64,000 bases of DNA from Escherichia phage vB_EcoM_WFbE185: sequence record MK373778.1. One strand, written 5' to 3'. Each line of letters begins with the position of its first letter. Position 1 is the stretch's first letter. A program made the translations under genes and the position numbers. The notes beneath the pieces were generated by a model. The model saw only the letters and a program-made list of their open reading frames with translations. It had not been told where the DNA came from and did not search any database. Shown one piece after another: positions 41,623 to 42,445 of the stretch.

Positions 41623-41665
41623 TATATACCTTGTCGGGGTCCCACCTGCTAAGGCAAGTGTTTGT

Positions 41666-41757
41666 ACGAAACGCCGGGATTCGAACCCGGTTATTAAGCA
41701 GTTGACGCTACTCAATATTTTTAAAAGGCCATATCTCGTCCATATCCGAACGTTCCG
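41666..41757 (-). ncRNA. tRNA-like element (canonical T-arm and 7-bp acceptor stem, atypical interior)
   Basis: Minus reads CGGAACG...CCGGGTTCGAATCCCGG-CGTTTCG; the 60-nt interior does not fold as a standard D or anticodon arm. Confidence 0.3.
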
Positions 41758-41925
41758 TCAAAAACGCTACTCGGCTTACGGCAAAGATATTTCCTCGAAT
41801 CGATAATTCTGTGCGCCGTTTCTGCTGTGATGTGAGGGGATATTAACAAATCGTAAAGATTTGTTAAGACCAGTCCTTACTCAGGGAACATCAGTCCGAC
41901 GTCTTGCCGGTAGCGACCCGGCTTC

Positions 41926-42270
41926 TTATTTTGGCATATCATCAATTTGCTCTCGACGCCGACGCCATAGATTAATCGCTTCATAGGCACATTCTGCGTT
42001 TGGTATATGACGGCAATAATATAATGATTCGCGTTTCTGGAACCGATGTTGCAACGGGATTTCGTTTAAAAGGTCTTTACGGTCAAAGTATTCAAAACTA
42101 GTTAACCCGGAACGGTTTTTAAGAAACTTCCAATGTCCGAATTCATTTTTAAAATAAACATAATCAGCATGTTGATATAATGAATTAATTAACCTATCGG
42201 AAATAACTGTTTCACGTTCGTTAAAATAAAACGTTAAATCATGAACTACCAGATACACATTGCCTTTCAT
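41926..42270 (-). CDS. Hypothetical protein, about 114 aa, embedded in the tRNA cluster
   Basis: ORF track 41926..42318 trimmed to ATG 42270 so it does not overlap tRNA-Arg. Confidence 0.45.
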   Translation of the reverse strand: MKGNVYLVVHDLTFYFNERETVISDRLINSLYQHADYVYFKNEFGHWKFLKNRSGLTSFEYFDRKDLLNEIPLQHRFQKRESLYYCRHIPNAECAYEAINLWRRRREQIDDMPK

Positions 42271-42288
42271 ATTTTCCTCACTTGAAGT

Positions 42289-42365
42289 TGGTCGAGACAG
42301 AAGGATTCTAACCTTCAACCTACGGATTAGAAGTCCGTTGCTCTATACAATTGAGCTATGCCTCG
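42289..42365 (-). tRNA. tRNA-Arg (anticodon UCU), CCA encoded
   Basis: Hand fold: acceptor CGAGGCA/TGTCTCG, D-stem GCTC/GAGC, anticodon stem ACGGA/TCCGT with loop CTTCTAA, T-stem GAAGG/CCTTC, 3-prime ACCA. Confidence 0.7.
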
Positions 42366-42371
42366 AATATA

Positions 42372-42445
42372 TGACCCAGACCAGATTCGAACTGGTAACC
42401 TTTCCCTTATGAGGGGACTGCTGCTAACCATTGAGCTACAGGGCC
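42372..42445 (-). tRNA. tRNA with CAU anticodon (Ile2 or Met)
   Basis: Hand fold: T-arm ACCAG-TTCGAAT-CTGGT, anticodon loop CTCATAA, D-loop AATGGTTA; one mismatch in acceptor stem; CCA not encoded. Confidence 0.6.

Follow-up and report, generated by a model that had tools for sequence, protein, structure and literature searches.

The window, by which we mean the whole 64,000-nucleotide stretch of Escherichia phage vB_EcoM_WFbE185 (MK373778.1) that was analysed, comes from an RB69-like T-even phage with 96% identity to the Mosigviruses JK45 and APCEc01. The region considered here lies on the minus strand and is very probably the Mosigvirus (RB69-type) version of the T-even phage tRNA operon. 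In operon order it comprises a tRNA with the anticodon CAU, which we assign to the Ile2 type, tRNA-Arg (UCU), a gene of the RB69ORF150c family (hereafter ORF150c), rnaD, rnaC, a conserved hairpin and a terminator (Table 1). The same pair of tRNAs and the same ORF150c are found in RB69, and in Mosigvirus ATK47 rnaC is annotated at the site homologous to that in the window. T4, in contrast to the two tRNAs of the window, has eight, with segB inserted between tRNA-Ile and tRNA-Arg. As a genome feature the locus is ordinary: it is the tRNA region of an RB69-type phage, and the parts of it that look odd are the species 1 and species 2 RNAs of T4. The whole of it is already known, and what is new is a predicted pairing between two loops of rnaC, which is a concrete handle for experiments.

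Table 1. Features of the operon, with their positions in the window and the basis on which each was recognised
Feature	Position	Strand	Basis
tRNA-CAU (Ile2 type)	42372..42445	-	ARAGORN, Rfam 54.0 bits, T4 tRNA-Ile orthology
tRNA-Arg (UCU)	42289..42365	-	ARAGORN, Rfam 71.1 bits
114-aa gene, RB69ORF150c family, phrog_3355	41926..42270	-	ORF and homologues
rnaD (T4 species 2 RNA orthologue)	~41810..41929	-	T4 homology, consensus fold
rnaC (T4 species 1 RNA orthologue)	~41662..41804	-	T4 homology, covariance model
rnaC predicted acceptor stem, 5' strand CGAUUCG	41796..41802	-	covariation
rnaC predicted arm I	41726..41795	-	covariation, helices 2 and 3
rnaC predicted arm II	41692..41717	-	covariation
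rnaC predicted T arm, CCGGG-UUCGAAU-CCCGG	41674..41690	-	covariation of middle pair
conserved hairpin 3' of rnaC	41643..41660	-	predicted fold
intrinsic terminator of operon	41594..41623	-	predicted fold

The putative terminator consists of a GC-rich hairpin followed by UUUUUU; its stem contains two U.U mismatches, on account of which a simple terminator scan missed it. The transcript of the T4 operon is reported to stop after the species I gene (PMC2330249). No late promoter motif (TATAAATA) was found near the locus. The hairpin ahead of the terminator (CACUUGC-CUUA-GCAGGUG) is kept just past rnaC. Its CACUUGCC comes after rnaC in Klebsiella phage L414 and directly 3' of rnaD in UP19, a phage that has rnaD without rnaC, and the hairpin may be a 3'-processing signal. 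Judging from the established biology of T4 and E. coli tRNAs, RNase P would process a single long transcript at the 5' sides of the tRNAs and rnaC, in a cleavage context of a conserved U at position -1 and a spacer, AAUUAU, after the upstream CCA. The 3' ends would then be trimmed and CCA added to tRNA-Ile, and the two tRNAs would supply decoding of AUA and AGA, codons that the phage uses more than does E. coli.

The two tRNAs and the gene downstream of them

ARAGORN identified exactly two tRNAs in the window, and both passed the gathering threshold (29 bits) of the Rfam tRNA model (RF00005). The two programs thus agree with the sequence-only reading, made earlier from the letters of this DNA, that two genuine tRNAs are present where T4 has eight. 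Its view that both read rare codons is right as well; AGA accounts for 16% of Arg codons and AUA for 14% of Ile codons when counted in the window's own long ORFs.

The gene for tRNA-Arg, whose UCU anticodon reads AGA and AGG, encodes its CCA and is not of the same sequence lineage as T4 tRNA-Arg. Its D-loop (AAUUGUAUA) has G18 followed by U19, and its T-loop (UUAGAAU) has A56. In alignments, U19 and A56 occur together in the tRNA-Arg of the window, RB69 and P896, whereas the homologous tRNAs of phage UP19 and Klebsiella phage L414 have G19 and C56. The proposal that U19-A56 stands in place of the G19-C56 elbow pair is thus borne out as a genuine covariation of a tertiary pair.

What is the identity of the tRNA with the CAU anticodon? 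ARAGORN and most GenBank records give it as the elongator tRNA-Met, the default reading of CAT, and the sequence-only reading left the choice at Ile2 or Met. However, it differs at a single nucleotide from the tRNA-Ile of T4, an isoleucyl-tRNA according to the T4 record; the only E. coli genes that resemble it are genes for tRNA-Ile; and it carries C4-G69 and C5-G68, which are reported determinants for TilS. The gene does not encode CCA, its 3' end (GGGUCA) being followed directly by UAUAUU. From its sequence, then, the CAU tRNA is of Ile2 type, is predicted to read AUA after lysidine modification and is the orthologue of T4 tRNA-Ile. The first of the two choices stands, and we regard the tRNA-Met assignment as very unlikely.

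The ORF noted earlier between the tRNAs and the structured sequence is real: a ribosome-binding site, GAGGA, precedes its ATG, and all homologues begin with MKGN. A gap of 18 nt separates its start from tRNA-Arg, and at its other end the stop codon runs into the position that corresponds to the 5' end of rnaD in T4. Members of the family were found in 425 phage records at 68-99% identity and in the same position, and the gene occupies that slot, ahead of rnaD, in T2-type phages too. Little could be attached to it by similarity. It matched no Pfam family, and no nuclease family at E<=1; its PHROG, phrog_3355, is one of unknown function; an AlphaFold2 model (pLDDT 70) gave no fold match with E<0.4 when compared with the PDB by Foldseek; and a sequence profile gave no PDB match below E=0.01. 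An HMM search of 1.84 billion proteins returned only 8 cluster representatives, and a word search of 5.8 billion proteins found no function.

It had been suggested that the ORF lies where T4 carries a homing endonuclease, and that it be compared with nuclease families. The position does not correspond, as segB is between tRNA-Ile and tRNA-Arg in T4 and the ORF is between tRNA-Arg and rnaD, and neither Pfam, PHROG, the PDB nor the search of 1.84 billion proteins gave a homing-endonuclease signal. The gene might nonetheless be a mobile homing endonuclease and the functional equivalent of segB, since the tRNA clusters of T-even phages host Seg enzymes such as SegB, a GIY-YIG gene is present in the tRNA cluster of Karamvirus fGh-Ecl04, and the content of the slot between tRNA-Arg and rnaD differs among phages. 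We consider this most improbable. At 114 residues the product is half the size of SegB, and no similarity in profile or fold to a GIY-YIG or HNH catalytic domain was detected in Pfam or the PDB. Moreover, its occurrence at one position in all 425 phages, at the level of identity given above, points to vertical inheritance rather than to sporadic insertion.

Identity and distribution of rnaC and rnaD

The species 1 and species 2 RNAs of T4 were first described in the 1970s. Homology and synteny identify rnaC as the orthologue of species 1 RNA, a giant tRNA-like RNA, and rnaD, immediately upstream of it, as the orthologue of species 2 RNA; the two T4 genes align to the window at 93% column identity. 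In T4, rnaC (T4 70908-71046) occupies the same place, at the end of the tRNA operon and before the terminator. The two versions of rnaC are identical at 140 of 143 positions (97.9%), as compared with 69-83% for the genes that flank it, and the three substitutions break no pair: two fall in an internal loop and one converts U.G to U-A. The body of the RNA would be 137 nt long, from C1 (41802) to a discriminator U (41666), with a tail of ACAA (41665-41662). A covariance model scored it at 164 bits and found no other copy in the window.

The 5' half and the 3' tail of T4 rnaD (T4 71053-71171) are conserved in the window, directly upstream of rnaC, whereas the sequence of the central hairpin differs, and the element directly upstream of rnaD is the ORF in the window and tRNA-Arg in T4. 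In the predicted fold a hairpin, GCCGG-GUCGCUA-CCGGC, stands on the 5' side, the closing stem is GUCGUCG/CGGCG-CAC, and there is an inner arm, the tip of which (about 41845-41870) differs between phages. The sequence-only reading had called the stretch at 41760-41900 structured and had pointed to a hairpin in it, AACAAAUC/GAUUUGUU; the structure is indeed there, and the AACAAAUC hairpin can now be placed as the tip of the inner arm, but the identities of rnaC and rnaD had been missed. The consensus fold of rnaD contains 11 compensatory pairs, with 94% of cells paired, as against 2-4 compensatory pairs in shifted controls, the fold having been derived and counted on one and the same alignment.

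Both RNAC and RNAD are described as stable late RNAs of unknown function (PMC9697503, PMC3014915), and both genes are reported to be non-essential (PMC3014915); accumulation of a stable rnaC RNA of about 140 nt has been shown for T4 only (PMC9697503). No published description of the rnaC fold was found in the literature searched, a scope outside which the early T4 papers on species 1 RNA fall. Nor does Rfam 15 hold a fold that combines an acceptor stem with U.U pairs and a loop-loop pairing: at the gathering thresholds and at E<=10 it returned nothing for rnaC or rnaD save a chance-level match to tRNA-Sec and a weak plus-strand match to isrK over part of rnaC.

The gene for rnaC is not peculiar to T4 but is a conserved resident of tRNA operons across genera. 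It is present in Tequatro-, Mosig-, Karam-, Kanagawa-, Winkler-, Gelderland-, Marfa- and Mosugukvirus and in a further Klebsiella phage, and in Kanagawa-, Winkler-, Karam-, Gelderland- and Mosugukvirus it is located inside tRNA clusters, directly after the CCA of a tRNA. The length of the homologues is constant (142-147 nt) despite turnover of the sequence of arm I. At the Dhakavirus and Gaprivervirus loci examined rnaD was found without rnaC, from which it would appear that rnaC is dispensable, and rnaC was not found in the tRNA region of the more distant Aeromonas phage 65. Three pattern scans of IMG/VR yielded, respectively, 16 true rnaC loci among 78 matches, no new loci among 107 matches and four new loci. 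Among the matches listed from a scan of bacterial genomes none was confirmed by profile as rnaC, and 5,426 E. coli genomes gave no match. Sequence records leave rnaC and rnaD unannotated or label them hypothetical protein, tRNA-Met, tRNA-Lys or tRNA-OTHER; the present assignments correct these missing or wrong labels, as well as the widespread labelling of the CAU tRNA as tRNA-Met.

Predicted structure of rnaC

Covariation among 28 homologues from about ten phage genera describes rnaC as a four-way junction. An acceptor-like stem and a T arm meet there with two additional arms, and the 6-nt loops of these two would pair with each other. This predicted fold pairs 92-97% of cells and has 29-38 pairs with changes on both sides, as compared with 3-16 in shifted controls. 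Two homologues that had been held out, those of PM2 and L414, fit the model at 82-89 bits and provide further covariation for the acceptor stem as well as for the loop-loop helix.

The acceptor stem, of 7 bp, is formed from the RNA's own 5' and 3' ends, the 3' strand being CGUUUCG (41667-41673). Pair 3 covaries (AU in 12 sequences, GC in 15 and GU in one), pair 1 does so in PM2 and pair 6 in L414. At pairs 4 and 5, U.U occurs in 26 of the 28 sequences; the remaining two, L414 and PM2, have Watson-Crick pairs there, which in PM2 are U-A. The middle pair of the T arm also covaries (GC:13, UA:12, CG:1). Most lineages have a canonical T loop, but in Kanagawavirus and Winklervirus it reads UGCAUGC or UGCAUCC; the non-canonical loop of these two genera counts against reading rnaC as a mimic of a tRNA acceptor and T arm (see below). 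In Marfavirus-like contigs, PM2 and L414 the gene itself supplies a CCA behind the discriminator U. T4-like lineages instead conserve ACAA as the tail, and hence rnaC may not act there as a CCA-ended mimic of tRNA.

Arm I is a long interrupted hairpin with a 6-nt terminal loop, UUGACG (41756-41761); in its helices 2 and 3, where 93-95% of cells pair, both partners have changed in 22 of the 25 pairs. Arm II is a 10-bp hairpin in which nine of the 10 pairs show compensatory change, and its 6-nt loop is CGUCAA (41702-41707). The loops of the two arms are predicted to form a loop-loop ("kissing") helix, which is 99.4% paired across the homologues. The combinations observed were UUGACG/CGUCAA (n=22), UUGGCG/CGCCAA (n=4), UUGCAG/CUGCAA (n=1) and GAGACG/CGUCA (n=1), a covariation that amounts to two or three independent events.

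The sequence-only reading had recognised a tRNA-like element of 92 nt at 41666-41757, either a stable RNA processed by RNase P or a decayed tRNA. The tRNA-like part of this was right and the unit was not, as the element is the 3' two-thirds of rnaC, itself 137-140 nt long. The first of its two suggestions is, by homology to T4, essentially rnaC. The second would have a pseudo-tRNA or decayed tRNA closed by a stem of its own, ACGGAACG/CGUUUCGU, with unrelated structured sequence upstream. Such a stem can indeed be drawn, with 8 bp that are 90% pairable across homologues; tRNA-Sec gives a weak full-length match of 16 bits; and in other phages ARAGORN and some annotators label the homologous stretch tRNA-Met, tRNA-Lys or tRNA-OTHER. 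The stem shows no compensatory changes, however, and 10 of 22 homologues cannot form its pair 4, whereas its 3' column covaries perfectly with the far, true 5' end of rnaC (AU:11, GC:11). Nor does decay fit a sequence that is conserved far above the neighbouring genes and has 38 covarying pairs, and the 45 nt upstream are equally conserved and are part of the annotated rnaC of T4. Finally, no standard tRNA was found in 41660-41900, where ARAGORN reported none and the best Rfam match, that to tRNA-Sec, was far below its threshold of 47 bits (E=4.4). We conclude that a pseudo-tRNA or decayed tRNA at this site is exceedingly improbable.

Possible roles of rnaC and its likeness to other RNAs

We tentatively suggest that rnaC is a mimic of a tRNA acceptor and T arm without an anticodon. 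It might bind a factor, of host or of phage, by which the acceptor ends of tRNAs are recognised, and so titrate or recruit it, with an effect on fitness in some hosts only. As part of this tentative suggestion, rnaD would be a separate structured RNA that is probably directed at the host as well. A more specific proposal, which we put forward as a speculation and judge unlikely, is that rnaC is a dedicated tRNA-end mimic, presenting its tandem U.U helix on a rigid loop-closed body, or in oligomers joined hand in hand, and that it neutralises or redirects a host factor acting on tRNA acceptor ends, for example a defence toxin that targets tRNA. If true, this would explain why rnaC is dispensable in laboratory hosts and yet conserved in about ten genera.

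It is also conceivable, if rather improbable, that neither rnaC nor rnaD has a function in trans and that both are modules for the processing or stability of the transcript (through entry of RNase P or RNase E, or 3' protection), the RNAs themselves being stable by-products. Both always lie either inside a tRNA operon or at its end, with processing sites on their flanks, and in Marfavirus-like contigs about 20 nt separate the end of rnaC from the start codon of the gene that follows, a spacing at which 3' processing of rnaC could set the 5' end of that gene's mRNA. Their reported non-essentiality and a function that has been unknown for decades are likewise what by-products would lead one to expect. 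A spacer, on the other hand, needs neither invariant complementary loops nor a constant length of 142-147 nt nor conserved U.U pairs. Also against this explanation, the only convergent adaptive SNP of an experiment on adaptation to a semi-permissive host arose in rnaD (PMC12685909).

Another question is whether the loops of rnaC pair within a molecule or between molecules. Two loops whose complementarity is maintained by covariation are the sequence signature of the packaging RNA (pRNA) of phi29, in which the pairing is intermolecular and serves the packaging motor, and the RNA is abundant late in infection (PMC9697503), as would suit dimers or rings held hand in hand with the oligomer as the functional unit. 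The lengths of the arms, however, fit closure within one molecule: arm II, the helix between the loops and the uppermost helix of arm I have 10, 6 and 6 bp, a sum close to the length of the lower portion of arm I with its 19 bp and internal loops, a fit that is inferred rather than calculated. Further, rnaC has no sequence similarity to pRNA, and no Rfam pRNA match was obtained in 41500-42500 at E<=10. To our knowledge, T4 DNA packaging needs no RNA. We therefore hold oligomers of this kind to be quite unlikely and favour pairing between the two loops of a single molecule.

For an RNA that has been without an assigned function for some 50 years, there is now a structure backed by covariation, with a U.U stem, a discriminator U, a CCA in some lineages and three co-varying versions of the loops, and these features are precise targets for mutagenesis and for searches for partners. 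How does this predicted structure compare with those of known tRNA-like RNAs? No tmRNA was found by ARAGORN in the window or by Rfam, and rnaC contains no tag reading frame; among the tRNA-like families compared here, YrlA alone gave an Rfam match in the region, and this match was below threshold (17.8 bits against 69) and lay over the two tRNAs and not over rnaC. In architecture, nonetheless, rnaC is like tmRNA, the 3' tRNA-like structures of plant viruses, mascRNA and YrlA in joining an acceptor stem to a T arm and a discriminator base, with CCA in some lineages, and likewise in a typical RNase P context and the lack of an anticodon arm. Where it appears to depart from these RNAs is in its body, which would consist of two arms locked together loop to loop, and in an acceptor stem built with tandem U.U pairs.

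The tRNA operon and its protein gene

A 2-kb query spanning the tRNA operon matched 755 phage records, the top matches (96% identity) being the Mosigviruses, or RB69-like T-even phages, JK45, APCEc01, and O157 typing phage 3. All of the features that we discuss lie on the minus strand. ARAGORN found exactly two tRNAs across the 64 kb, and both exceed the 29-bit threshold of the Rfam tRNA model, in agreement with a sequence-only reading of this DNA. That reading had left the CAU tRNA as Ile2 or Met. Only one base sets it apart from T4 tRNA-Ile (which is likewise encoded with CAT and is labeled isoleucyl-tRNA in the T4 record), its sole E. 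coli similarities are to tRNA-Ile genes, and, as in T4 tRNA-Ile, CCA is not encoded. Judged by these likenesses, it is of the AUA-reading Ile2 type, and the usual label, "tRNA-Met", is a default misreading of CAT.

Features of the tRNA operon (window coordinates)
Feature	Position	Strand	Basis or remark
tRNA(cat)	42372-42445	-	ARAGORN; Rfam tRNA model, 54.0 bits
tRNA-Arg(tct)	42289-42365	-	ARAGORN; Rfam tRNA model, 71.1 bits
RB69ORF150c (phrog_3355, unknown function)	41926-42270	-	homology, PHROG
rnaC acceptor stem, CGAUUCG (true 5' end) with CGUUUCG	41802-41796 with 41673-41667	-	covariation
rnaC arm I terminal loop, UUGACG (6 nt)	41761-41756	-	perfect complement of arm II loop
rnaC arm II terminal loop, CGUCAA	41707-41702	-	perfect complement of arm I loop
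Conserved hairpin, CACUUGC-CUUA-GCAGGUG, between rnaC and terminator	41643-41660	-	fold
Terminator hairpin and U-tract	41594-41623	-	predicted fold

The tRNA-Arg belongs to a lineage other than that of T4 tRNA-Arg. It has G18-U19 in the D-loop and A56 in the T-loop, and the U19/A56 combination recurs in the tRNA-Arg of RB69 and of Gaprivervirus P896, where it is kept despite a different, compensated acceptor stem. Since the clearly homologous genes of Dhakavirus UP19 and Klebsiella phage L414 (90% identical) have G19 and C56, the U19-A56 covariation proposed earlier is real. The RB69 RefSeq copy (L004:4784-4862; L-numbers label comparison segments) is 79 nt long, with two extra G residues in the anticodon stem (AACGGGGACUU) that are missing from the window and from all other Mosigvirus copies; they may reflect an error of sequencing in the 2003 record, or else a true defect. 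Among Arg codons in 56 long ORFs of the window, 16% are AGA, and among Ile codons 14% are AUA; these shares are several-fold higher than in E. coli and are consistent with codon supplementation by the two tRNAs.

The 114-aa ORF150c has a GAGGA ribosome-binding site and starts 18 nt past tRNA-Arg. It was found by tblastn in 425 phage records. Mosigvirus copies are 90-99% identical, and those of T2/RB51-type Tequatroviruses, which likewise lie directly upstream of rnaD, are about 70% identical. A search of 5.8 billion proteins gave only seven close relatives, and one of 1.84 billion only eight cluster representatives. It had been placed where T4 carries a homing endonuclease, but T4 segB lies between tRNA-Ile and tRNA-Arg, which here are 6 nt apart. 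Nor did we see evidence for a nuclease or mobile gene: ORF150c has no Pfam family, its PHROG is uninformative as to function, its AlphaFold2 model (medium confidence, pLDDT 70) has no PDB neighbor at E<0.4, and a PDB sequence profile search gave nothing credible. A Seg-like GIY-YIG endonuclease gene does occur in the tRNA cluster of Karamvirus fGh-Ecl04 (L197:409-1023), two tRNAs upstream of rnaC, and is a further case of T-even tRNA regions targeted by homing endonucleases. Downstream of the operon is a 154-aa ORF (41086-41550; phrog_2280, unknown function) whose N-terminus weakly matches an internal-virion-protein PHROG (E=0.008).

Identity and fold of rnaC

Over 41640-41925, column identity to T4 rnaD plus rnaC is 93%. 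In the T4 record the two are entered as species 2 and species 1, both small stable RNAs, and Mosigvirus ATK47 has rnaC annotated at the same place. A 92-nt tRNA-like element had been proposed at 41666-41757; its T arm stands, whereas its boundaries do not, the stretch being the 3' two-thirds of rnaC. The length of rnaC is constant across homologues (142-147 nt). It had no match in 5,426 E. coli genomes, nor was it found in the tRNA region of Aeromonas phage 65; the Dhaka- and Gaprivervirus loci that we examined have rnaD but lack rnaC.

Public records seldom annotate either RNA: Klebsiella phage Kpn BM7, for one, has CDSs labeled "hypothetical protein" over both (L198:1200-1343 and 655-775). 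Because the 3' part of rnaC resembles a tRNA in its acceptor/T-arm helix, it is annotated as a 95-nt tRNA-Met in SonariX (L007:1551-1645) and as tRNA-Lys or tRNA-OTHER elsewhere, calls that are artefacts.

GenBank phages and IMG/VR contigs supplied homologues, and a covariance model built on 22 of them retrieved two more, from tRNA clusters in Pectobacterium phage PM2 and Klebsiella phage L414. In the 22 sequences, 96.9% of cells were paired and 29 pairs had changed on both sides, as against 3-9 with shifted partners; in 28 sequences the values were 92.3% and 38, as against 7-16. Pair 3 of the acceptor stem switches between A-U and G-C among lineages. U.U occupies pairs 4 and 5 in 26 of the 28 sequences; the other two, PM2 and L414, have Watson-Crick pairs there, and in these phages pairs 1 and 6 covary as well. 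After the stem comes a discriminator U, and then a tail that reads ACAA in the T4-like lineages, whereas Marfavirus-like contigs, PM2, and L414 have CCA. The acceptor stem proposed earlier, ACGGAACG/CGUUUCGU, showed no compensatory change, and its pair 4 is broken in 10 of the 22 sequences. The middle pair of the T arm covaries; most lineages have a canonical T loop, UUCGAAU, but Kanagawa- and Winklervirus do not. In the lower part of arm I, one of two extra hairpin arms, the sequence is wholly replaced between lineages with pairing preserved. Neither Rfam nor the literature searched yielded such a fold.

The terminal loops of arms I and II covary too. They are UUGGCG with CGCCAA in four Marfavirus-like sequences and UUGCAG with CUGCAA in L414, and PM2 retains a 4-bp core (GACG/CGUC). 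When the two loops are scored as one helix, pairing reaches 99.4%; one position occurs as A-U, G-C, and C-G and another as C-G and A-U. The alignment was not fitted to the loops, because they lie outside the structure of the covariance model. The loops might pair between rnaC molecules, as in phi29 pRNA. We infer pairing within one molecule, however, since the lower part of arm I is about as long as arm II (10 bp), the loop helix (6 bp), and the top helix of arm I (6 bp) combined.

rnaD, processing, and the end of the operon

The hairpin AACAAAUC/GAUUUGUU noted earlier is present and forms the tip of rnaD, which varies between phages; the "further structured sequence" that includes it falls within the stretch aligned to T4 rnaD and rnaC. 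In rnaD, the 5' half and the 3' tail are almost invariant, and the central hairpin is swapped for unrelated hairpins in some phages. The consensus fold comprises a 5' hairpin, a closing stem using the 3' end, and an inner arm. Counted on the very alignment from which the fold was drawn, 94% of its cells are paired and 11 of its pairs are compensatory, whereas shifted controls gave 2-4. Because weak rnaD-like elements (core AAGUCGUCGRACUGAYGUUCCCUG; nhmmer E between 1e-3 and 1e-4) occur in Mosugukvirus PM2 (L412:2642-2695) and Marfavirus-like contigs (L198:680-756, L211, L213), with a covarying first hairpin, rnaD may be as widespread as rnaC. The PM2 element sits in a 600-nt unannotated gap of the tRNA cluster.

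Five other genera have rnaC within the tRNA cluster, a few bases past a tRNA's CCA. The spacer before it is conserved as AAUUAU, with U at position -1, which is the usual RNase P context. By analogy with established tRNA processing in E. coli and T4, this context and the acceptor/T-arm helix support probable maturation of the rnaC 5' end by RNase P.

In T4, transcription of the operon reportedly stops downstream of the species I gene (PMC2330249). The predicted terminator was missed by a simple scan because of two adjacent U.U mismatches in its stem (41600-41623); the rnaC acceptor stem (41796-41802/41667-41673) has two as well, probably by coincidence. The conserved hairpin motif, CACUUGCC, also lies directly 3' of rnaD in UP19, which has no rnaC, and 3' of rnaC in the distant phage L414. 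A plus-strand "terminator-like" site (41906-41922) is merely the antisense of the first rnaD hairpin followed by a T-rich stretch.

A possible role for rnaC, and comparison with known phages

Reviews and recent studies still give the function of rnaC and rnaD as unknown (PMC9697503, PMC3014915, PMC12685909). Tentatively, rnaC could mimic the acceptor end of a tRNA and bind a tRNA-recognizing host or phage factor, being important in some hosts only. The acceptor/T-arm helix is exactly what rnaC keeps, together with conserved non-Watson-Crick pairs of a kind typical as protein-recognition marks, whereas any anticodon arm is lost; such a role would also suit an RNA that is dispensable yet strongly conserved. 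We also count in its support that the only convergent mutation in a T4-like phage adapting to a semi-permissive host fell in the neighboring rnaD (PMC12685909). The main rival, that rnaC and rnaD do nothing in trans and are modules for processing or stability, strikes us as unlikely and somewhat less probable than acceptor-end mimicry.

The sequence-only reading was largely correct in what it observed and right only in part in its interpretation. The interest of the locus is moderate and stems from the unsolved function of the two RNAs and from the covariation-backed fold, above all the loop-loop helix. The window has two tRNAs, the same set as RB69, against eight in the corresponding region of T4; the window's rnaC differs from that of T4 at 3 of 143 positions, none of which breaks a pair, and the flanking protein genes are merely 69-83% identical to those of T4. 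The locus is an RB69-type tRNA region with T4 rnaC and rnaD, and is already known.
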